From IMG/VR virus record IMGVR_UViG_2663762992_000011: 14,898 nt of DNA; one strand, 5' to 3'. The notes beneath the pieces were generated by a model. That model saw nothing but the letters and a program-made list of their open reading frames with translations, made no database searches and had not been told where the DNA came from. The stretch comes from a virus (taxonomy: Duplodnaviria; Heunggongvirae; Uroviricota; Caudoviricetes). Of this stretch, positions 1,499-13,920 are shown piece after piece. The stretch's first letter is position 1. Every line of letters starts with the position of its first letter. Made by a program: the position numbers and the translations under genes.

Positions 1499-1916
1499 TA
1501 CCCGTCCAGAAGAAGACATTTTCACTGGCTGGTATGTCGCCAAAATCCAGCAATATGACGGCAAAGTCAGGCATTAATACAGCAGATGCAAGCAAAGTTT
1601 ATCATTTGCTGGTGGTCGGAACGGATGCCTTAACCATACCAGAAATCACGGGCGATGATGTTAGCGTTGAGAAGGTCAGCGGCTGCGCCAGAGAATTTCT
1701 GGTCGTAGATGACCTGTTCTGCTCGTGTAGTGACTCCACAAAAACATTCGTCCACGCGCGTGACGTTAACGAAATGAGCGCGATGTACTGTGCTTCTGGT
1801 TCTTCCAATAGTGAGTTTTCGGAGTCCATAAAAAAGAGCTTGCCGTTATGCGGCAACACGGTTTATGGTTATAAGGCACCTCATAAAACGGGTGCCGGGA
1901 TTGGCGTCCTGGTAAA

Positions 1917-3834: not shown

Positions 3835-6591
3835 ATGCGAAACATTGATCTTATCCGTCAGGTTATCAGTGCGTCTGAAAACAACTGGCCTCATGTGCTG
3901 GGCTGCCTGAACATAAATGTCCCTGACTCTCCGCGCCGTCATGCTCCCTGCCCTGCATGTGGGGGCAAAGATCGATTCCGGTTCGATGACAACGGGCGCG
4001 GTAGCTTCATCTGTAATCAGTGCGGCGCTGGTGATGGGCTGGATTTAATTAAACGCGTAAATAACTGCGACACAACAGAGGCGGCGCTGCTTGCCGCTGA
4101 TGTTCTGGGTATTGATTACCGGACAACGGAAACACCAGAAGCCACCAGCCAGAAACGGGAACAACTGGAAACCGAGCGCCAGCGACGCGAACAGGAGCGC
4201 CTGAAAAGGGCGGAGAAGGACGAACAACAAAGACGGGATACGTTTTCCCGTCAGTTTGATGACATGCGCAGAAAGGCTGTAAACGGCAAATCTGATTATC
4301 TGGTTGCGAAAGGGGTAGGTGATTTTACATTCCCCGTGTTGCCCGATGGATCTCTGTTGCTGGCGCTGGTGGATAAATCCGGCGCAGTCACAGCAGCACA
4401 GACTATTACCTCACATGGTGAAAAAAGACTCCTGACAGGTTCAGCAAAGCGGGGGGCATATCACGCCATAAACGCACCAGAAACAACACAGAGCATCTTA
4501 ATCGCAGAAGGGCTGGCAACGGCATTATCTGCCCATTTAATTCGTCCAGAGGCGCTGACAGTGGCGGCGATTGATGCCGGGAACCTGTTATATGTCGCCC
4601 AGGTACTGCGGGATAAATTTCCTTCAGCACAAATCATCATTGCTGCGGATAACGACCACAGCGAAGGAAGACAAAACACGGGGAGAATAGCAGCAGAAAA
4701 AGCAGCTTTATCTGTTTCTGGATGGGTGGCATTACCCCCGACAGGTCACAAAGCAGACTGGAATGATTACCACCAAAAACACGGCATTAAATGCGCCACA
4801 GAAGCGTTCAATAAGTCAATGTACCAACCACAGGGTAATGGCGTGAAACAGGAGCCACAGACCATTGAGGGAAGCGATTTTAAGGTTATGGATACCGACC
4901 CACTGAAACCAAGAATAGAAAGCCGCGAGGATGGTATTTATTGGGTATCTCCGAGAGCTGACAGCCAGAGTGGAGAAATCATCAATAACGAAAGCTGGTT
5001 ATGTTCTCCGTTAAGCGTTATCGGTACTGGCAGAGACGATAAAGACCAGTATCTCATTCTTCGCTGGCTGTCGTTTGGTTCTGAAACGCCGACAACCGCT
5101 GCCATTCCACTGGCTGATATTGGTGAACGTGAAGGATGGCGCACACTTAAAGCTGGTGGGGTAAATGTCACGACCAAAAGCAGCCTCAGAGCAATACTGG
5201 CAGACTGGCTACAACGCAGTGGCTCTCGTGAATTGTGGCGTGTTGCTCATGCCACTGGCTGGCAATGCGGAGCGTACATCATGCCTGATGGGGAAATCAT
5301 CGGAACACCTGAAAATCCTGTGCTGTTCAGCGGGAGAAGCTCAGCCGCAGCCGGATATACCGTCTCAGGGAGCGCGAAAAGCTGGCGTGATAACGTGGCG
5401 CGTCTGGCCTTTGGTAACTATTCAATGATGACCGGGATCGGCGCAGCACTGGCAGCGCCATTGATTGGGCTGGTGGGCGCTGACGGGTTCGGCATTCATT
5501 TCTATGAGCAGTCGAGCGCGGGTAAGACCACCACGGCAAACGTGGCGAGCAGCTTATACGGCAACCCTGATTTACTGCGGCTGACGTGGTACGGAACCGC
5601 GCTGGGGCTGGCAAATGAGGCCGCCGCCCACAATGACGGATTAATGCCGCTTGATGAAGTTGGTCAGGGCGCTGATCCTGTCAGCGTTTCACAGTCTGCC
5701 TATGCGTTATTTAACGGTGTAGGGAAACTGCAAGGCGCTAAAGATGGTGGAAACCGGGATCTAAAACGCTGGCGTACAGTGGCAATCAGCACCGGAGAAA
5801 TGGATTTAGAAACATTTATCGCTACTTCCGGGCGAAAAACCAAAGCCGGGCAACTGGTGCGACTGCTGAATATTCCGTTGAGTAAAGCAGTACGCTTTCA
5901 CGATTACCAGAACGGAAAACAGCACGCAGACGCACTGAAAGACGCTTACCAGCATCACCATGGCGCAGCCGGGCGTGAGTGGATTAAATGGCTGGCAGAC
6001 CACCAGCAACAGGCTATTAAAACTGTTCGTGATTGCGAAAGCAGATGGAGAAGCCTGATCCCATCCGATTATGGTGAGCAGGTTCACCGTGTAGCCGCGC
6101 GATTTGCCATTCTGGAGGCCGCATTGTTGTTAGGCGAGGTTGTAACAGGCTGGGATGCTCAGACATGCCGTGATGCGATACAGCACAGCTATAACGCATG
6201 GTTGCGCGAGTTCGGCACAGGTAACAAAGAGCATCAGCAGATTATTGAACAAACGGAGGCATTTCTTAATGCCTATGGGCTTAGCCGTTTTGCACCATTT
6301 CCATACACCCCGGCAGATTTGCCCATCAAAGATTTAGCCGGATACCGTCAGCGTGGAGAACATGACGAAAGTCCAATGATTTTCTACACATTCCCGGCCA
6401 CATTTGAAAAGGAGATCGCATGTGGTTTCAACGCAAAACAGTTTGCTGAAGTGTTGAAAAAAGCCGGGATGCTAACCCCACCAAACAGCGGTCGTGGATA
6501 CCAAAGAAAATCACCACGTATTCAGGGACGACAAATAAACGTTTATGTACTCAATTACCAGCCAGGAGATTACAACTCATCTGAAGAATGA
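3835..6591 (+). CDS. P4 alpha-like DNA primase-helicase (zinc-ribbon + Toprim + P-loop NTPase, 918 aa)
   Basis: N-terminal CxxC...CxxC zinc ribbon (CPACGG...CNQCG). Toprim-like motifs (ILIAEG ... IIIAADNDHSEGRQNTG with a DxD). Walker A-like SSAGKTT and Walker B-like LMPLDEVGQG in the C-terminal half. RBS-like GGGGG before the ATG at 3835. Iterons lie immediately downstream. Confidence 0.9.
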   Translation: MRNIDLIRQVISASENNWPHVLGCLNINVPDSPRRHAPCPACGGKDRFRFDDNGRGSFICNQCGAGDGLDLIKRVNNCDTTEAALLAADVLGIDYRTTETPEATSQKREQLETERQRREQERLKRAEKDEQQRRDTFSRQFDDMRRKAVNGKSDYLVAKGVGDFTFPVLPDGSLLLALVDKSGAVTAAQTITSHGEKRLLTGSAKRGAYHAINAPETTQSILIAEGLATALSAHLIRPEALTVAAIDAGNLLYVAQVLRDKFPSAQIIIAADNDHSEGRQNTGRIAAEKAALSVSGWVALPPTGHKADWNDYHQKHGIKCATEAFNKSMYQPQGNGVKQEPQTIEGSDFKVMDTDPLKPRIESREDGIYWVSPRADSQSGEIINNESWLCSPLSVIGTGRDDKDQYLILRWLSFGSETPTTAAIPLADIGEREGWRTLKAGGVNVTTKSSLRAILADWLQRSGSRELWRVAHATGWQCGAYIMPDGEIIGTPENPVLFSGRSSAAAGYTVSGSAKSWRDNVARLAFGNYSMMTGIGAALAAPLIGLVGADGFGIHFYEQSSAGKTTTANVASSLYGNPDLLRLTWYGTALGLANEAAAHNDGLMPLDEVGQGADPVSVSQSAYALFNGVGKLQGAKDGGNRDLKRWRTVAISTGEMDLETFIATSGRKTKAGQLVRLLNIPLSKAVRFHDYQNGKQHADALKDAYQHHHGAAGREWIKWLADHQQQAIKTVRDCESRWRSLIPSDYGEQVHRVAARFAILEAALLLGEVVTGWDAQTCRDAIQHSYNAWLREFGTGNKEHQQIIEQTEAFLNAYGLSRFAPFPYTPADLPIKDLAGYRQRGEHDESPMIFYTFPATFEKEIACGFNAKQFAEVLKKAGMLTPPNSGRGYQRKSPRIQGRQINVYVLNYQPGDYNSSEE

Positions 6592-6727: not shown

Positions 6728-7046
6728 ACAATGTGACTGAATTGATGCGCACAACACCTGGCTGGCATCAGAGAGTGTTTTACGAGACTTTCGTAAAATC
6801 CTGTGTACAAGGGCGTGACGTTTTGAAAGTGAGCAATACGAAATTTTCGTAGTTCAGAAAACAGCCCCTGAGAAGTTGTTATGCCTGTTCAGCAAACCAT
6901 CCGCATAGCTGATCGCGAATCAAATTACCAATGGAGTCAGAAGCAAGGGCAGAACTGAAAAGCGCCTGCCGTGAAGAGTAATGCGACACCATAAATATAG
7001 TTTTTAGAGTCCATAAAAAACCTGTCAAAACCTGACATACAGAACG

Positions 7047-7174: not shown

Positions 7175-7348
7175 ATGGCTATTTCAGTAAAGCCAGTATT
7201 GATAAGTGAGAAGCAAATGGAAGCGATAAAGAAAATTCAGGAGGAGCAGCGTAAAAAATCAGAGGTAGGAGTTGCGCCAACGATCCACGAAATTGCTCGG
7301 GGATTAATGGATAAGGCGCTGGCTTACACTTTAACTGGACGTGGGTAA
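7175..7348 (+). CDS. Small protein (57 aa), possibly a ribbon-helix-helix-type regulator; absent from the ORF track (below size cut-off)
   Basis: Strong RBS AAGGGGG 4 nt before the ATG at 7175, stop TAA at 7346-7348. Product MAISVKPVLISEKQMEAIKKIQEEQRKKSEVGVAPTIHEIARGLMDKALAYTLTGRG has a strand-helix-helix-like pattern. It directly precedes the large two-gene cargo operon. Confidence 0.45.
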   Translation: MAISVKPVLISEKQMEAIKKIQEEQRKKSEVGVAPTIHEIARGLMDKALAYTLTGRG

Positions 7349-7352
7349 ATTT

Positions 7353-8819
7353 ATGGCTACGTGGCAACAGGGTATTAATTCTGGTGGTTTTCTGGCTGGC
7401 ATTGGTGCGCAAAACGAGAATGCGCCAAAGGCAAGCGACATTAACACAACGCTTGGTCTGATCCGCGAAAACAATGAACTGGCTCGATCAGGTGCAAATA
7501 ACGTTGGTCTGACCGCGTTACGTGGTCTGGCTGGAGTTGCTGATATTTATAAGCAGCAGCAACAGCAGGAACGTAAAGCGGCATTCCAGAAAGGTTATGC
7601 GGATGCTTATGCGTCCGGCGACAGGGAGCAGATGCGTAATCTTATTACAGCATTCCCCGAAGAGTTTGAGGAAGTTCGTAAAGGCATGGGGTATGTCGAT
7701 GACGCCCAGCGGAATGATTTTGGCAATCTGGCGCTTAAGGCTCAGGTCGCTTCGTCGCTTGGTCCGGGTGCATTTGGCAGGTTCATGATGGATAACGAAA
7801 AGGAGATGCGTCGTTTAGGTATCCCTCCAGAAACTATTGCTGAAATGCAGGTTAATGACCCGCAGGGCTTCCAGCATTTCGCAGGTAATCTGGCGCTGTT
7901 TTCTCTCGGTCATGAGAAGTACTTCGATATCAAAGATCGAATGGAAGGTCGGGATATTGAGCGTGGCAAGTTGGCAGAAACAATCCGCAGCAATCAGGCT
8001 GGCGAAGCACTTCAGGCGAGAGGGCAGGATATTAGCCGAGCAAATGCGTTAACGTCAGCATATGCACCAACAGCAGCAATGCAGAATTACAATCAGTACG
8101 CTCAAATGTTAAAGGCGGATCCAGAGGGGGCGGCGGCATTTGCGGCAGCGGCTGGAATTAATACAAACGCCAAAAAATTAATGAGTGTTAGAGAAAACGA
8201 TGATGGCACTGTCACAAAATACTACACAGACGGAAGTGAAGAGCATGGAAAACTAAACCAGCCAATATCTGGAGATGGGTTTCGTCCAATAGCTTTGCCA
8301 ACAGCCCAAAAGATCATGGAAAAGTCGCCAGAAGGGGCTAAAAAAGCTGCTGGATTTGCATACAGAGTTAGGGATGCTCTTGATTCAATGGATACACTGA
8401 AAGGCCAGCTTAGCCCACAGCGAGTGGCGATCATTAATAATGCTTTGGGTAATGGGACGCTGGCTAACTTAACGCTCAGCCCAACAGAGCAGCAATACGT
8501 TGTTAATGCTAATGACGCAATAATGGCAATACTCCGTCAGGAAACAGGGGCAGCTATCGTACCTGCTGAAATGTCAAAATATTATCAAATGTATTTCCCT
8601 CAGCCTGGCGACTCCACAAAAACCATTGATACCAAGCGCCGGAAGATGGAAAACCAGTTCAATTCGCTGAAAGCTGCTTCTGGTCGAGCTTATGATGCTT
8701 TGCGGGTTATTTCAGCAGTTGACAGAGGGACTTCTTCTTCGTCGCAGACATTGCCGCAATCTGAGCAGGTATCACAGCCAGCAGCCAGCAGTAATTTTTC
8801 TTCACTATGGGGTGATTAA
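7353..8819 (+). CDS. Hypothetical protein (488 aa), Ala/Gln-rich, no recognised domain
   Basis: Long ORF (track 7341..8819; ATG at 7353 preferred). Its stop overlaps the start of the next gene (TAATGG). Composition is low-complexity and helical-looking with an S-rich C-terminus; no catalytic motif noticed. Confidence 0.7.
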   Translation: MATWQQGINSGGFLAGIGAQNENAPKASDINTTLGLIRENNELARSGANNVGLTALRGLAGVADIYKQQQQQERKAAFQKGYADAYASGDREQMRNLITAFPEEFEEVRKGMGYVDDAQRNDFGNLALKAQVASSLGPGAFGRFMMDNEKEMRRLGIPPETIAEMQVNDPQGFQHFAGNLALFSLGHEKYFDIKDRMEGRDIERGKLAETIRSNQAGEALQARGQDISRANALTSAYAPTAAMQNYNQYAQMLKADPEGAAAFAAAAGINTNAKKLMSVRENDDGTVTKYYTDGSEEHGKLNQPISGDGFRPIALPTAQKIMEKSPEGAKKAAGFAYRVRDALDSMDTLKGQLSPQRVAIINNALGNGTLANLTLSPTEQQYVVNANDAIMAILRQETGAAIVPAEMSKYYQMYFPQPGDSTKTIDTKRRKMENQFNSLKAASGRAYDALRVISAVDRGTSSSSQTLPQSEQVSQPAASSNFSSLWGD

Positions 8820-10924
8820 TGGCTAAAGCATGGAAAGATGTTATCGCCTCTCCACAGTATCAGGCGTTAGCACCAGAGCAAAAAGCGCAGGCTCAGGAGC
8901 AATACTTCAATGAAGTCGTGGCCCCGCAAGCCGGAGAAAGTGTAGAGCAGGCTAAGCAGGCTTTTTATGCTGCCTATCCACTACCATCAACGAATGAAAT
9001 AGACCGATCCCAATCAGCAACTCAAAATATTCAACATACATCATCTGATAATTCTCTTGCGTCAGGGTATGCAAAGTTAGCTACTCAGCAAAGAGAGGGG
9101 CTTGAGCGTTCAGCAGAACAGGGAGCCAGTCTTGGGGCTGCTATGCGCGATGCTATAACAGGCGAAAGCCGAATGACTCCAGAGATGGAGAGACTGCAAA
9201 ATGTCGACCTTGCCCCAGAGTTAACCTCACTCAGCATGGATGCTCTAAAAGCTCGATGGTCTCAACTTTTCGGCTCTGACGCATCTCAGGAAAAGATTCT
9301 TCAGAGCATGGGAGCGAAATTAAGGCAGGATGAGAAGGGTAACACTATCGTTTCCCTGCCATCCGGTGATTATGCTCTGAACAAGCCGGGTTTATCGCCG
9401 CAAGACGTGGCATCGTTTCTGGCTAATGCGCTGGCGTTTACACCAGCGGGCAGGGCTGGAACGGTGCTTGGTGCCATAGGAAAATCAGCAGCTACAGATT
9501 TAGCACTACAGGGAGCCACCAGCCTTGCTGGTGGAGAAGATATTGATCCGTTACAAACGGTAATTTCTGCTGGCATTGGTGGTATTGGTAAGGGGCTGGA
9601 AAATACAGCGAGTGCGGTTTCGAGGGCTGTTCGTGGTGATATGTCGCCTGAAGCAAAGGCTGCTGTCAACTTTGCATCGGAAAGAAATCTGCCGTTAATG
9701 ACCAGTGACATGCTGAAAGATAAAACCTTTATGCAGAGTCAGGCTCAGACATTAGGCGAAAGAGTTCCTTTTTTTGGAACCGGTAAGAATCGGCTGAATC
9801 AACAACAAGCACGAGAAAATTTAGTCAGAACATTTAGCGATGGTCTGGGTGGCATTTCTGATAAACAGCTTTATGAATCTGCGACTAAAGGGCAACAAAA
9901 ATTCATTGAGGCAGCAGGAAAGCGATATAACCGCATAATTGACGCTATGGGGGATACCCCTGTCGATCTCTCAAACACGGTAAAAGCTATCGACAATCAG
10001 ATTGCCGTGTTAAGCCGCCCGGGAAAATCTCAGGATAGAGCCGCGGTAAAAGTCTTGCAGCAATTTAAAGACGATATCACCAGCGGACCAAATGACCTGC
10101 GTCTGGCGAGGGAAAACAGAACCGATCTTCGAAAGCGATTTATGGCGTCATCTGACACTGTTGATAAAGATACGCTCCAGAAAGCCAGCGATATTATCTA
10201 CAAGGCATATACGGCGGATATGAAAAAAGCCGTAGCCAAAAATCTTGGAGCAGACGAAGCCATTAATATGGCAAGGGTTGATCGCTCATGGTCTAAATTC
10301 AATGACATGATGGGAAGAACGCGCGTTCAAAAGGCAATAGCCAGCGGCAAGGCCACGCCTGAGGATGTAACAAAACTCGTTTTTAGCCAAAGCCCATCAG
10401 AACGTTCTCAGCTTTACAGGCTTCTGGATGACAATGGTAGGCAAAACGCACGAGCAGCCATAGTTCAGAATGCTGTAGATAAGGCGACTGATCCGTCTGG
10501 AAATATCAGTGTTGAGAAGTTTATTAATGCGTTACACCGGAACAGGAAGCAATCAGCAACTTTCTTTAAAGGCGTACATGGAAAGGAACTGGACGGCGTT
10601 ATTAAATACCTCAACGATACAAGACACGCGGCAAAAGCGAACGTTCAAAACTTAAATGGTCAGCAGCTTTATGGATTGTTAGTTGGTGGTGGCATCATAA
10701 ACGCAGCAGTATTAGCGGGGATGCTAAAAACGGCTGCGTTTGTTGTTCCTGCTGCTGGTGCCGTAGGCGGAGCCGCGAAGGCATACGAAAGCCCTGTTAT
10801 ACGAAATGCCTTGTTACGTCTGGCAAATACGCCAAAAGGTAGCACAGCATATGACAGAGCGATCAGTACGGTCACACAATCACTGACCACAGCAGCACAA
10901 GCATCGCAAAAGGAAGCTCAATAA
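8819..10924 (+). CDS. Hypothetical protein (701 aa) with a C-terminal Gly/Ala-rich hydrophobic hairpin-like segment
   Basis: Long ORF coupled to the upstream gene. Near the C-terminus, LLVGGGIINAAVLAGMLKTAAFVVPAAGAVGGAA forms two hydrophobic Gly/Ala-zipper stretches split by KT. The rest is hydrophilic and Ala/Gln/Lys-rich. No family recognised. Confidence 0.75.
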   Translation: MAKAWKDVIASPQYQALAPEQKAQAQEQYFNEVVAPQAGESVEQAKQAFYAAYPLPSTNEIDRSQSATQNIQHTSSDNSLASGYAKLATQQREGLERSAEQGASLGAAMRDAITGESRMTPEMERLQNVDLAPELTSLSMDALKARWSQLFGSDASQEKILQSMGAKLRQDEKGNTIVSLPSGDYALNKPGLSPQDVASFLANALAFTPAGRAGTVLGAIGKSAATDLALQGATSLAGGEDIDPLQTVISAGIGGIGKGLENTASAVSRAVRGDMSPEAKAAVNFASERNLPLMTSDMLKDKTFMQSQAQTLGERVPFFGTGKNRLNQQQARENLVRTFSDGLGGISDKQLYESATKGQQKFIEAAGKRYNRIIDAMGDTPVDLSNTVKAIDNQIAVLSRPGKSQDRAAVKVLQQFKDDITSGPNDLRLARENRTDLRKRFMASSDTVDKDTLQKASDIIYKAYTADMKKAVAKNLGADEAINMARVDRSWSKFNDMMGRTRVQKAIASGKATPEDVTKLVFSQSPSERSQLYRLLDDNGRQNARAAIVQNAVDKATDPSGNISVEKFINALHRNRKQSATFFKGVHGKELDGVIKYLNDTRHAAKANVQNLNGQQLYGLLVGGGIINAAVLAGMLKTAAFVVPAAGAVGGAAKAYESPVIRNALLRLANTPKGSTAYDRAISTVTQSLTTAAQASQKEAQ

Positions 10925-10985
10925 CAGATGACCATGGATGGTTGGTTATAATAGTAATTAGTATTTTTTCAAATAGTTATGAACA

Positions 10986-11384
10986 TTAACACTTGCCTTT
11001 AACATTGCCGACAAATGAGCCTGTAAATGAGCCTATATCAGATCGACTAATTGTTCGTGTATGGATCACTTTTCCGTCATTTGAGATTGCCCATGTGACA
11101 AGCGTCAGTTGACCATCTCGATAGCTTCTCCCCATCATGGCATTCGGAGATAGCGGGTAATAATCAATACCTCCACCTATACCATCTTTTGCCAAGATAA
11201 GATCCGCCTTCTCTTTACTTATTACCAAATGAAATGTATCTGGTATAGATGATAACTTATAGTTATACCCATCTGAACTTGAGGCTTCTTGTCCTTTCAG
11301 ATCACCAATAATCCAGCATTCAGCGTTCGCTCCAAAAGAAGCAAATAATAAACCGGAGACAACCAATCGCTTCAATTGATTCAC
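10986..11384 (-). CDS. Small secreted (signal-peptide) protein, about 132 aa precursor, function unknown
   Basis: Minus-strand ORF (track 10986..11453). Preferred start is GTG at 11384, preceded by AAAGGGAGGG with a 5-nt spacer, giving a textbook signal peptide MNQLKRLVVSGLLFASFGANA followed by ECW. AT-rich gene, convergent with the 701-aa gene. Confidence 0.55.
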   Translation of the reverse strand: MNQLKRLVVSGLLFASFGANAECWIIGDLKGQEASSSDGYNYKLSSIPDTFHLVISKEKADLILAKDGIGGGIDYYPLSPNAMMGRSYRDGQLTLVTWAISNDGKVIHTRTISRSDIGSFTGSFVGNVKGKC

Positions 11385-11500
11385 ACCAACCCTCCCTTTA
11401 GCGTTGTTTAGAATGGCAATCATCATATATCCAAGACATGGCATTTGGTACATAGCTTGGGTCGGGATTTCAAATCCGCTCCCAGTTGATGGGGCCGTTA

Positions 11501-11935
11501 CAGTACGCGCATATCCGCTTTATGTGAAACAGGAAGATTTTTCTGATATCACTGCCACAGCAAAACACCAATTTCGTGACCAGTACGCGCGCGAGGGGTA
11601 TCAGTTGCAAAAATTTTGCAACTACGTCCGACCAGTACGCACACAATGGCGGGGAGCACCATAAAAGCGTTCTCTACATGAGACAGAGTGGTGGTGATGT
11701 GTTGATTATCGGCGTATATGCGCACAGGACGCGCTATGACAATGTTTTATGCGGGTACACCAATCACATGTATCTGGTGTGATAAATCGCGTTACATGAC
11801 ATCTCATGTTGTGCTGGTGGTTATAACGACGTTCTGAATCTGGCCTTTGCCTGATATTTTGCGACAAGTACGCGCGCGTAGCATCGACAGCATACACATT
11901 GGATATTCATTTTGTGACCAATGCGATAAGTAGCG
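11501..11935. repeat. Dispersed family of about 20-bp repeats (approx. ATTTyGyGACCArTACGCGCGCG); a further copy at 13502-13527
   Basis: Copies at about 11501-11512, 11572-11593, 11626-11642, 11857-11880 (containing the perfect palindrome TACGCGCGCGTA) and 11910-11935, plus 13502-13527. On the minus strand several copies translate to variants of the C-terminus (...LIPLxxxLVTK) of the small ORF 11907..12065. Confidence 0.4.
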
Positions 11936-12065
11936 GGATAAGAATTGATAAAATCAACAGGACGATGATCCACTTTTGATTTTCACTGGCCTTATATCTA
12001 TTTTCATCAATCTTATCAATAATTCGACGCTCTAAGCCGTGCATATCACCGCGAATGGCAATCAT
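11907..12065 (-). CDS. Small tail-anchored membrane protein candidate (52 aa); absent from the ORF track (below size cut-off)
   Basis: Minus-strand ORF MIAIRGDMHGLERRIIDKIDENRYKASENQKWIIVLLILSILIPLLIALVTK: charged N-terminal half and one C-terminal hydrophobic helix. Weak RBS; the start codon is uncertain. Confidence 0.3.
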   Translation of the reverse strand: MIAIRGDMHGLERRIIDKIDENRYKASENQKWIIVLLILSILIPLLIALVTK

Positions 12066-12207
12066 CTCATTGCGAACATCCGAGAAGTGGTTGGCTTAAT
12101 GTTCAATGTGTGGCGTTCTGCCTTTCATGCCTGATCCTCACCTATCGTCACCACCTGCTGGTGTATAAAGGTATTGGCCCAAGCAGCTTTCCAATGGGCA
12201 CTCATGT

Positions 12208-12663
12208 TTATACGCTGACCTTACAATCAATCACCGCTTTTAACTTTTCAGCATTGCTTCCCTGACGCTTCCACGCGCTGTAAATATCTTTATCCCACGC
12301 TTTACCAGCTTTTGTTTGATAGCCTGCTTCATTGATCCGTTCAGCTATCACACGCCCATTATCAAATCCCTGTCGAATGGTATCGGCAATGATCTTTATA
12401 ACTGCCGTTTCGTTATATGGTTTTGGTGGGATGTTCGGCTTTCCGGCAATAAGCGACGCAGCGGCTTTTTCCATGCGCTCCACCAGCCCAAGCATTCGTG
12501 AATCAATAGACTTTTCCGGCTGCCCCAGCTTCATGCGAATCGCATCAACAAGCCAGGAGGTTTTATCTCCTCCAGAAGCGAGAACAGACCGATTAAACTC
12601 ATCCTGCAATTCAGATGGGATGCGGAACGCGACCAGATTAGATTTGCTCATTGCAAAGACCAT
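12208..12663 (-). CDS. Ribbon-helix-helix DNA-binding protein with a C-terminal extension (about 147-151 aa)
   Basis: N-terminal SNLVAFRIPSELQDEFNRSVLASGGDKTSWLVDAIRMKL fits the RHH (Arc/CopG-like) strand-helix-helix pattern. The C-terminal IAERINEAGYQTKAGKAWDKDIYSAWKRQG resembles the DNA-binding helix motif seen in recombinase-type domains (tentative). Start is ambiguous between ATG 12663 and ATG 12651. Confidence 0.6.
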   Translation of the reverse strand: MVFAMSKSNLVAFRIPSELQDEFNRSVLASGGDKTSWLVDAIRMKLGQPEKSIDSRMLGLVERMEKAAASLIAGKPNIPPKPYNETAVIKIIADTIRQGFDNGRVIAERINEAGYQTKAGKAWDKDIYSAWKRQGSNAEKLKAVIDCKVSV

Positions 12664-12680
12664 ATCAGTGAGTAATATCC

Positions 12681-12712
12681 ATACAGTATACCACTGTATA
12701 ACACTGTTATAC
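12681..12712. promoter_or_regulatory. Operator-like repeats upstream of the RHH gene (ACAGT-N5-ACTGT inverted repeat plus direct ACTGT(T)ATA repeats)
   Basis: ACAGT (12683-12687) and ACTGT (12693-12697) are inverted; ACTGTATA (12693-12700) and ACTGTTATA (12703-12711) are direct. They sit in the leader of the minus-strand RHH gene. Confidence 0.3.
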
Positions 12713-12765
12713 GCTCAAATATCAGCCAGAAAATAACGGACCAATCACAAATCTATCGCTGTGTT

Positions 12766-12886
12766 GTTGGTTCAGAGCTGGGCTGTGTTGGTTCAAAATG
12801 AGTTGATGTTGGTTCAATATTTTAGAAAAAACACAATAAAAACAACGCTCTTTACAAATTGAACCAACTGAACCAACTGAACCAAC
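12766..12886. repeat. Iteron cluster 2 (candidate crr/ori-like site), mirror image of cluster 1
   Basis: Three spaced GTTGGTTCA (12766-12774, 12787-12795, 12808-12816), an AT-rich spacer (12817-12859), then three tandem TGAACCAAC (12860-12868, 12869-12877, 12878-12886). This is the reverse-complement arrangement of cluster 1. Confidence 0.75.
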
Positions 12887-12922
12887 ACCTTTTTGCTTAT
12901 CTATATAATCTGAGAGGCAGAA

Positions 12923-13210
12923 ATGATAAGGGACAGGAAAGCTGAAGAGCTGGAGTCAAAAGGGCTATACCGGAGAGCTGCCGCACGATGGGCAGAAGTC
13001 ATGATGCTGGCAGATGGCGATAAAGAACGTGAACATGCAGCAAACAGACGCTCTGAATGTATCCGTAAGGCGGCACGCCCACCAGCAACTACAGACAGAT
13101 TCGGAGATTTAAGACAGGCAGTTAAGCGAACTCATTCGGCTCTTGGTATGGATGAGGAAGCGAGAGGGTACTTCAGGCGTTATCGCGATAAAGATTGCCA
13201 GAGACAGTAA
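12923..13210 (+). CDS. PerC-family-like small transcriptional regulator (95 aa; tentative)
   Basis: MIRDRKAEELESKGLYRRAAARWAEVMMLADGDKEREHAANRRSECIRKAARP matches my recollection of the PerC-family N-terminal pattern (AEELE..GLYRRAA.RW). RBS-like GAGAGG precedes the ATG. Confidence 0.55.
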   Translation: MIRDRKAEELESKGLYRRAAARWAEVMMLADGDKEREHAANRRSECIRKAARPPATTDRFGDLRQAVKRTHSALGMDEEARGYFRRYRDKDCQRQ

Positions 13211-13309
13211 TGCTCTCTCTGTTTTGGCAAATTACCCCTCACTTTGAAGGGATCGGAGCTATAAAAATGGTTTTAGGTACATTCCTCAAATTGAGGATTG
13301 TGGAAAAAC

Positions 13310-13364
13310 CAATGGGTTAGGCTTTTCCCCCAATGGGGGTTTTCGAAAGTATCAATGGGTTAGG
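13310..13364. repeat. Direct repeats CAATGGGTTAGG (x2) with a partial CAATGGG copy between, at about 21-22 bp phasing
   Basis: Copies at 13310-13321 and 13353-13364, partial copy at 13331-13337. An adjacent perfect palindrome TCCTCAA-A-TTGAGGA lies at 13282-13296. Helical phasing suggests a protein-binding array. Confidence 0.35.
13327..13344 (+). terminator. Weak terminator-like hairpin CCCCC-AAT-GGGGG followed by TTTT
   Basis: 5-bp G/C stem, 3-nt loop and T-run about 115 bp after the PerC-like stop. It overlaps the CAATGGG repeat, so it may be a binding site and not a terminator. Confidence 0.3.
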
Positions 13365-13886
13365 TCATCGTGCAAATTTGCACTCTGCCAGCCAACGCAT
13401 TTTTTCGTTGGCGGGAATATCAGGTATTTACTGATTCTGCCGACTCACAAGGATGCGAGAACCTTATAAAACCTAATATCGCAGAGCTTAATTGTGTACA
13501 GCAATTTCACGAGCAATACGCGCGCACAGGACAACGAGCCTGAACATGGTTACACACCTCAATCATGAGGGATGTAGGTAATGGCTTCAGACCAAAGCAA
13601 CCAAAATAGCTTCGGCCAGCGCGTAAAACGCTCTTGGTAGAAACTCGATGAACTGGATGATGAGCACAACACAAGAAGAATTGTGATTATCACAATAGAG
13701 GCAAAATTATGCCCACACCTTCAATTGCGCGGATAACACCAGAAAAAACTGTGTACATAAGGGTGTACATAATCAAAAACCGCATTAGAAAGAAACCAGC
13801 TACAATGCGGCATTGAAGCCAATACTCTACAAACAGATCCAACATTGAATAACTCGTAACGCCAATTCTTCCTTTTCAGCCTTCAC

Positions 13887-13920
13887 AAATGCCGCCCACT
13901 CAAACAGAGCGGCATTTTTC
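13887..13920 (+). terminator. Rho-independent terminator (AAATGCCGC ... GCGGCATTTTT)
   Basis: 7-9-bp stem with a 13-nt loop and a T-run, about 150 bp upstream of dinD. No + strand ORF lies directly upstream, so it may terminate an unannotated transcript or mark a junction. Confidence 0.5.

Follow-up and report, generated by a model that had tools for sequence, protein, structure and literature searches.

Non-coding copies of a phage small-terminase gene segment in a satellite-type island of Escherichia coli are candidate mimics of a helper packaging site

The window analysed here (the whole 14,898-nt stretch of the virus record IMGVR_UViG_2663762992_000011) covers most of a ~16.5-kb integrative island located between yicC and dinD of Escherichia coli. 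The island encodes an AntA/AntB protein, an 'Ash' open reading frame (ORF), a primase, two ejection proteins, ORF155, ORF151 and PerC, and it is a satellite-type element devoid of a gene for the small terminase subunit (TerS). In the right part of the window, we identified several copies of a short motif (motif 1), a fragment of ~20-50 nt homologous to codons ~52-67 of the terS gene of Sf6/HK620-type phages, which may well mimic the packaging site (pac) of helper phages. The copies, designated A to F, are all located on the plus strand:

11501-11512, plus strand: copy F, a marginal partial copy (CAGTACGCGCAT) in which only the 10-mer CAGTACGCGC (11501-11510) is common with the core
11572-11592, plus strand: copy A (TTTCGTGACCAGTACGCGCGC), 31.0 bits, with the exact core TTTNNNGACNANTACGCG
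11624-11644, plus strand: copy B, degenerate (ACGTCCGACCAGTACGCACAC), 6.6 bits, fifth-best match in the window
11857-11877, plus strand: copy C (TTTTGCGACAAGTACGCGCGC), 27.3 bits, containing the palindrome TACGCGCGCGTA
11910-11930, plus strand: copy D, degenerate (TTTTGTGACCAATGCGATAAG), 5.7 bits, the first 14 nt being exactly ATTTYRNGASMART
13505-13525, plus strand: copy E (TTTCACGAGCAATACGCGCGC), 29.3 bits, ~310 bp inside attR

The window contains five matches to GACCARTACGCGCGC with at most three mismatches, against 0.54 expected, and a repeat search of the window joined 11578, 11630, 11863 and 13511 into one repeat family. The scores given above were obtained with a 21-nt position weight matrix (PWM) trained on real terS genes only; in shuffled windows, the maximum PWM score has a 95th percentile of 14.0 bits and a highest value of 20.7 bits. 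Chance matching, which the initial annotation had named as a way in which its repeat family could fail, is excluded for A, C and E by these shuffles and by the PWM from independent terS genes, and we rejected a chance origin of the repeats on both grounds. The scores of B and D are individually below significance. Because these two are the next-best matches on the plus strand after A, C and E, and because B lies 52 nt downstream of A and D 53 nt downstream of C, they were taken as partners of A and C and are probably degenerate copies. The initial annotation had counted at least five copies, among which we retain three as solid (A, C and E), two as degenerate (B and D) and one as doubtful (F); the additional copy that it had placed at 13502-13527 is indeed E, and C contains the perfect palindrome that it had noticed in one copy.

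The positions of A, B, C and E are kept in all 10 related E. coli loci that were fetched. Among E. coli islands, A is polymorphic at 11577 (T/A/G) and 11581 (C/A), two positions that are free in terS, and B, while kept in position, varies at 11635-11645 among related loci. D was seen only in islands carrying a 73-aa cargo ORF, whose 3' end, including the stop codon, is provided by the antisense strand of D. When complete E. coli genomes were probed with 40 nt around A, 546 of 5426 (~10%) matched, at 1-3 places per genome, and all full-length matches, among the matches listed, fall in unannotated or hypothetical-protein sites, consistent with this island family; a REP-like repeat dispersed genome-wide was rejected on the basis of these two results.

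Read on the plus strand, motif 1 corresponds to F-R-D-Q/K-Y-A-R, the conserved peptide that ends the DNA-binding domain of the Sf6/HK620-type TerS. An exact scan of IMG/VR with ATTTYRNGASMARTACGCGCGC retrieved 42 loci, about half of which are relatives of the island. In ~15 unrelated viral contigs, the motif is in frame within ORFs of 130-200 aa that read …RWL…FRDQYARARE.QAD…, and one of these ORFs, taken as representative, matches proteins annotated as terminase small subunits in deposited phages, including gene 3 of HK620. In this P22-like E. coli phage, gene 3 reads GCAAAGCATGAGGATTTTCGCGACAAGTACGCGAAGGCA (A-K-H-E-D-F-R-D-K-Y-A-K-A), and the terS-like stretch around A (11560-11601) reads A-K-H-Q-F-R-D-Q-Y-A-R-E-G; the two have AKH+FRDxYA in common, with synonymous differences. 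The 14-mer GCGACAAGTACGCG of C is identical to HK620 terS, and the flank upstream of C (~11834-11856) resembles the '…W-L-A…' codons of terS. The core is found exactly in A, in C and in the terS genes of HK620 and of the prophage Gally, i.e., with the similarity expected of a copied helper packaging site. Only one copy of the motif is detectable in HK620 terS. A full-length HK620-type terS is present in 232 of the 5426 E. coli genomes. In addition, the match of ~400 E. coli genomes is confined to the final ~90 nt of this gene, joined to a different 5' part, which fits an exchange of the TerS DNA-binding domain and its site between phages.

The similarity of the window to terS does not extend beyond this segment. 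A TerS hidden Markov model (HMM) run on the six frames of the window matched only at A (11563-11592) and E (13490-13537), over 10-16 residues, and a tblastn search of the window for an extended terS produced only matches of 7-11 residues. The oligomerization and C-terminal regions (…RKW…KYGDK…) that a terS gene or pseudogene should exhibit are lacking, HMM positions ~52-67 being the only ones represented, and an extended terS pseudogene was rejected by both tblastn and the six-frame HMM. Most copies are located in, or next to, the following features:

11379-11887, no strand: conserved non-coding block that holds F, A, B, C and a palindrome, with 95-97% identity in ~20 loci
11604-11622, no strand: perfect 9+9 palindrome between A and B, GTTGCAAAA-A-TTTTGCAAC
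11907-12128, minus strand: cargo gene of hotspot 1 encoding a 73-aa tail-anchored membrane protein (the 52-aa ORF of the initial annotation is 11907-12065)

The block is considered as non-coding because single-base indels occur among related loci at six places (11479, 11555, 11612, 11650, 11762 and 11806), in agreement with the initial annotation, which had seen no long intact ORF that would account for the region. It has no Pfam match, no Rfam match and no significant fold. Coding on either strand was rejected by these frameshifting indels and by the lack of Pfam match for the ORFs tested, and a known structured RNA family by the absence of Rfam match and of significant fold: Rfam covariance models gave no match with E<0.9 over 10900-13900, and the fold z-scores range from -0.95 to +0.42. 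The copies are non-coding and do not correspond to terS pseudogenes. The stem of the palindrome at 11604-11622 is conserved among islands, and its centre varies in length and sequence.

The 73-aa ORF is intact in a related locus (L001) and is cut at codon 11 in the window by a TAA (12096-12098) where relatives read CAA, the 52-aa ORF being its shortened form. The protein matches phrog_6324 (1.5e-10) and, weakly, a holin family; in related islands, its gene is swapped for an Abi gene, for ImmA/IrrE and a partner, or for an HTH gene. The initial annotation had proposed that the copies are decayed tandem paralogues of a small toxin-like gene, and the minus-strand peptides on which it relied (…LIALVTK* at D and …ARVLVTK at A) had been read correctly. 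Such …LVTK-like endings, together with the overlap between D and the 3' end of the small ORF, are what decayed paralogues of a small membrane-protein gene would leave. However, these peptides simply follow from the motif by reverse complementation, and it is the plus-strand reading that is meaningful. The indels in relatives are frameshifting, and D is the only copy that overlaps an ORF, itself swappable cargo, instead of the small hydrophobic ORF repeated at each copy that an array of type I toxins or small-toxin paralogues would exhibit. Neither decay of this gene nor debris of a terS pseudogene accounts for a similarity to the 73-aa ORF or to TerS that is no longer than 10-16 residues. Moreover, the fragment recurs in elements without the small ORF, and the genomic matches to the pattern comprise more than 10 fragments for each full-length terS, the opposite of what decay would produce. 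We regard both forms of this explanation as highly improbable.

Synonymous sites were analysed in 56 terS genes that share <80% nucleotide identity with each other and whose GC content ranges from 39 to 70%. Tyr60 is encoded by TAC in 54 of the 56 genes, against 66/97 at other conserved Tyr columns (27/41 and 39/56; Fisher p=1e-5). Ala61 is encoded by GCG in 36/53 genes (Fisher p=8e-17) and Ala63 in 28/56 (Fisher p=7e-10), against 27/244 at the six other conserved Ala columns of terS, where this codon is the one least used for Ala. In the HK620-like subset, Asp58 is always encoded by GAC (22/22) and Phe56 mostly by TTT (24/28). The bases constrained in terS (TTT, GAC, TAC and GCG) are those that are invariant in the non-coding copies; a function read at the DNA or RNA level is therefore superimposed on these terS codons.

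P22-like phages begin headful packaging at a pac located within gene 3 (PMC9611059, PMC8022706). Virion sequencing of E. coli LF82 revealed a sharp packaging-start peak for its P22-like prophage Gally at 1,019,224, inside termS, from which coverage falls rightward (bioRxiv 10.1101/2022.10.28.514194). The terS gene of Gally is 98% identical to HK620 gene 3, and its motif 1 (1,019,177-1,019,200) lies 24-47 bp to the left of the reported peak. Leavitt et al. (2013) reportedly mapped the pac of Sf6 to the portion of the gene coding for the DNA-binding domain of TerS.

In many bacteria, satellite-like elements have kept the DNA sequence of motif 1. In a set of one genome per species (GTDB), the pattern is present at 55 loci, from sources that include Neisseria, Rodentibacter, Hydrogenophaga, Bordetella, Bradyrhizobium, Rhodobacterales and Acidobacteria. 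A full-length terS exists at only four of these loci; most of the others have the motif alone (HMM positions ~52-67), with a second degenerate copy 60-190 nt away at several of them. The fragments are found next to DUF927 helicases, Toprim primases and P4-type integrases. Among the 25 most frequent of the 96 neighbour families, none is a terminase or capsid family. In a test independent of the pattern, 80 loci were fetched by DUF927 protein similarity alone and scanned with a matrix built only from terS genes retrieved by protein similarity. Matches above the 99th percentile of the null were present in 33 of these loci, against 0.8 expected (p~1e-44), many of the loci being mutually related, with at least six different sequence contexts represented, so that the counts overstate independence. 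All 45 matches are on the strand of the primase gene and none is within a TerS ORF. The copies commonly occur in groups of two or three at these DUF927 loci, and no regular phasing of tandem copies is clear in the other satellites (spacings of 26, 26, 45, 57, 79 and 110 nt).

The window itself carries a Toprim/DUF927 primase gene, the hallmark of the element class in which motif 1 occurs, as well as ejection-protein genes and iterons:

3835-6591, plus strand: Zn-ribbon/Toprim/DUF927 primase-helicase gene (Pfam), in the same orientation as all motif copies
7341-10924, plus strand: two P22-type ejection (injection) protein genes (Pfam Inj_translocase, 7e-85; PHROG; RefSeq product names in related loci)
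12760-12890, no strand: iterons TGTTGGTTCA and TGAACCAAC flanking an AT-rich stretch, distinct from the motif

The last of these is a likely replication origin. Motif 1 differs from such iterons, its copies being G+C-rich and dispersed (spacings of 52, 233 and 1648 nt). One could nevertheless imagine that the motif is an accessory site bound near the origin by the satellite primase-helicase or by a host factor. At 14 of the GTDB loci, it lies 175-320 bp downstream of a DUF927 gene, on the same strand, and the origins of phage-inducible chromosomal islands (PICIs) are located downstream of pri (PMC10111431). In Neisseria elements, motif 1 is directly upstream of TTGTTACC iterons and of an AT-rich stretch, an arrangement that would suit an accessory role. 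Such a role would leave without reason the identity of the motif with terS coding DNA and the synonymous constraint in terS. Furthermore, the copies of the window are 0.6-1.2 kb away from the iterons, those of many enterobacterial satellites are located 1.5-4.6 kb upstream of the primase gene, and the measured packaging start of Gally adjoins the motif. Accessory origin sites thus seem to us quite an unlikely explanation.

Two copies of another motif (motif 2) are present in the left half of the window:

1816-1836, plus strand: copy a (TTTTCGGAGTCCATAAAAAAG), 40 nt upstream of isrK
7001-7021, plus strand: copy b (TTTTTAGAGTCCATAAAAAAC), non-coding, between the primase and ejection-protein modules

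Copy a is identical over 21/21 nt to terS codons K-F-S-E-S-I-K-K-G of a second type of TerS DNA-binding domain, which occupy the position homologous to FRDKYAKA in HK620. The matching codons (L271, 1293-1313) are in the terS of a P22-like prophage of E. coli M172-1, a strain that has this island in its genome as well. More than 300 viral contigs, many of them ~40 kb long, encode this second TerS type, and the 80 genes of this type that were retrieved are at least 99% identical. Many enterobacterial DUF927 satellites show the order motif 1 (one to three copies), motif 2 (37-90 nt further on) and isrK/C4; in Neisseria elements, a pair of motif 1 and motif 2 precedes the origin. The two motifs, found side by side, cannot both derive from a single terS gene, and a satellite dependent on several helpers would be expected to collect the recognition segments of two types of terminase.

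The location of the motifs just upstream of isrK/C4 in many satellites, and the strictly sense orientation of the copies relative to satellite genes, also call to mind an RNA-level mimic, in which satellite transcripts containing a segment of terS mRNA would titrate a regulator of helper late genes, or be targeted by it. A small RNA such as the C4 or IsrK RNA of the island would be a candidate regulator, and in P4 immunity the position just upstream of isrK/C4 is occupied by seqA-type targets. The predicted C4 and IsrK duplexes with the copies are ordinary in energy (21st-98th percentile of window segments), and a target of either RNA was rejected for this reason. The lack of significant folding and of Rfam match, as well as the location of A-D in a region of the window flanked by minus-strand genes, further argue against an RNA mimic, which we consider very unlikely. 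The initial annotation had alternatively suggested a DNA or RNA element: a DNA element is supported, in the form of a terS fragment and not of a generic regulator site or a Z-DNA tract, and neither Rfam nor folding lends support to an RNA element.

The reading that we favour, with moderate confidence, is that the motif copies are cis-acting pac mimics that allow the island to be packaged by a helper; binding by TerS and packaging of this island are what we infer from the sequence features described above. The helpers would be P22-like phages of the Sf6/HK620/Gally type, which would perform headful packaging from a pac inside their own terS, where the end of the TerS DNA-binding domain is encoded. 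The presence in the island of P22-type ejection genes (one for an Inj_translocase, the other for a DNA transfer protein with a transglycosylase region, from Pfam and PHROG) is a clue that points to such a P22-like helper, and the P22-like prophage with motif 2 that resides with the island in M172-1 is another, equally indirect clue; to our knowledge, genes of this type have not been found in the satellite families described so far. The several non-coding, same-orientation copies of the ~20-50-bp terS segment, with the proposed invariant core TTT-nnn-GAC-nAn-TAC-GCG(CGCG), would be bound by the TerS ring of the helper once the island is excised and replicated; the large terminase subunit (TerL) would then cut nearby, and island concatemers would be packaged rightward (in the plus direction) into helper capsids. 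Multiple or paired sites (a strong and a weak copy 52-53 bp apart) could raise the affinity, and the two motif types could widen the helper range.

Mimicry of packaging signals by satellites is well established for the pac of PLE/ICP1, the cos of P4 and SaPIbov5 and the pac of EfCIV583 (PMC11417361). As in these elements, a satellite without the matching terminase specificity bears a short copy of what would be the helper packaging site. The 18-21-bp core of the island, within ~50 bp, is to be compared with the 14-bp identical core within 89 bp of PLE. The island differs from this type of mimicry in that the mimicked site is intragenic, inside the helper terS, in that 3-5 dispersed copies are present in the same orientation, in the addition of a motif from a second TerS type, and in the recurrence of the motif in primase/DUF927 elements of many bacterial families. 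For PLE, experiments established that transduction depends on the site, whereas the role of the island motif is predicted from sequence. In other systems, such as Rpp of the PICI EcCICFT073 or the satellites with their own TerS (SaPI, PLE), the satellite is likewise preferentially packaged by the helper motor, but through a satellite protein, and no TerS, Rpp-like or capsid gene was recognized in the window.

The 22-bp pac of P22, AGAGAAGATTTATCTGAAGTCG, is located in gene 3 (Wu 2002, as cited in PMC9611059 and PMC8022706). This pac and the P22 TerS type are unrelated to motif 1, which is located at the end of the part of HK620/Sf6/Gally-type terS encoding the DNA-binding domain. The resemblance with the intragenic pac of P22-like phages lies in a recognition site inside terS, such that domain and site would travel together. 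We know of no published pac defined at the base-pair level for the Sf6/HK620 TerS type, and the core proposed here is a prediction. The pairs of copies 52-53 bp apart recall the pac of SPP1 (pacL/pacR), in which a TerS ring binds several boxes, short and repeated, and cutting takes place nearby; in contrast to SPP1, multiplicity would here be a property of the satellite, a single copy being detectable in the HK620 helper-type gene.

A different function of the terS-derived fragments is suggested by the mosaic structure of the islands, in which we observed three hotspots: 10941-11379, with ORF155 alleles, 11888-12240, and 13202-13501, which is empty or contains either a 254-aa ORF or a gene of the pRiA4b ORF-3 family. 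At hotspot 1, the homology between islands stops at 11887, 10 nt 3' of C, and the islands diverge from 11888. At hotspot 2, the variable segment 13202-13501 ends 2 nt before E, which forms its right boundary, and the homology of two related loci (L006 and L010) to the window resumes at 13502. In two loci (L008 and L011), a C-like copy is present just after PerC, upstream of different cargo, and accessory genes lie directly upstream of terS in P22-like phages. The fragments could consequently be seen as short homology anchors, or scars, for cargo exchange, without any terminase binding. However, most of the other breakpoints (10941, 11379, 12187-12241, 12765, 13006 and 13201) are away from the copies, and A and B are internal to the conserved block. 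Recombination patches would explain neither the synonymous constraint in terS, nor the strict co-orientation of the copies, nor the second motif type, nor the conservation across phyla in elements without cargo variation. This explanation is in our opinion unlikely.

Several observations weigh against packaging-site mimicry, beginning with the breakpoints adjoining C and E just mentioned. In Neisseria and Rodentibacter elements, the motif abuts iteron or AT-rich origins, which would suit a role in replication. Known E. coli phages match only in part, the island copies reading …TACGCGCGCG and the HK620/Gally genes …TACGCGAAGGC. BLAST of 11379-12200 against deposited phages gave no match, and that of 13380-13840 only chance-level matches, both searches being too insensitive for a 20-nt element. 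The prophage of M172-1, the one co-resident genome examined, lacks motif 1 and carries motif 2 instead. Finally, sequence-specific DNA binding by pac-type TerS is hard to show in vitro (PMC9611059).

A broader proposal, which we put forward tentatively and to which we give somewhat less than an even chance, is that the 18-21-bp core TTT-nnn-GAC-nAn-TAC-GCG(CGC) is the pac element of the whole Sf6/HK620-type TerS family, and that TerS-less satellites in several phyla spread by means of it. The pac core would then be written into the codons that end the DNA-binding domain of TerS itself, in phages ranging from enterobacterial to Neisseria, Pseudomonas-type and others, and a large unrecognized population of TerS-less integrase/primase/DUF927 satellites would carry arrays of it. 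These satellites would often also bear a second site from another TerS type, and their motif repertoire would predict their helper range. The novelty here would reside in the intragenic nature of the mimicked site, the multiple co-oriented copies, the two motif types, the very wide phylogenetic spread and a base-pair-level prediction of the pac core used by Sf6/HK620-type TerS. For pac-type TerS, pac has been genetically mapped inside terS, but specific binding has rarely been reproduced in vitro (PMC9611059); two independent signals, the synonymous constraint in terS and the non-coding satellite copies, converge here on one short core. Packaging-site mimicry would also explain the transfer, without packaging genes, of a common E. 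coli island family that carries swappable cargo, including Abi and ImmA/IrrE genes. It would allow the helper specificity to be predicted from sequence for elements in Neisseria, Pasteurellaceae, Burkholderiales, Rhizobiales and other groups.

Concerning the island itself, its integrated nature is indicated by island-free genomes, which match the window only from ~13834-13844 onward, at the 3' end of yicC. A tyrosine integrase gene is located just left of the window in a near-identical relative, and a 2.7-kb probe detected related islands in 672 of the 5426 complete E. coli genomes, often at other integration sites. Apart from the short TerS HMM matches at A and E, Pfam, PHROG and the TerS HMM recognized nothing of a terminase or capsid in the window, and the annotation of the left end of the near-identical relative likewise lacks both kinds of gene; an element with integrase and primase genes and without its own terminase and capsid genes is what is expected of a satellite. 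Motif 1 is absent from attL. An att site, or scars of tandem integration, were rejected as explanations of the motif, the att core being at the yicC 3' end and unrelated to it. Integration in a late gene, as known from helper-embedded satellites, is not applicable to this island. The attR core imitates the 3' end of yicC (~13835-13860), and GTGTACATA repeats resembling integrase arm-type sites are present near both island ends (13745-13775 in the window and 17090-17160 in the relative L003).

In the left part of the window, Rfam isrK and C4 RNAs were detected at 1876-1953 and 2016-2103. The 'ash family' ORF (1495-2562) has a Pfam Phage_ASH match at aa 124-232 (nt ~1864-2190), i.e., over the stretch of the isrK and C4 antisense RNAs; the ash protein call, and perhaps part of the Phage_ASH family in Pfam, may correspond to a translated RNA locus. 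Next to the iteron region, the 151-aa minus-strand ORF (12208-12663) is replaced in some islands by a small HTH regulator, and its N-terminus, judged by eye from the sequence, resembles a ribbon-helix-helix. Two 40-nt repeats with the palindromes CCTCAAATTGAGG and CCCCCAATGGGGG are present at 13282-13364, and similar CCTCAAATTTGAGG palindromes flank an AT-rich stretch that comes right after motif 1 in a Rodentibacter element (L074, ~1600-1800).

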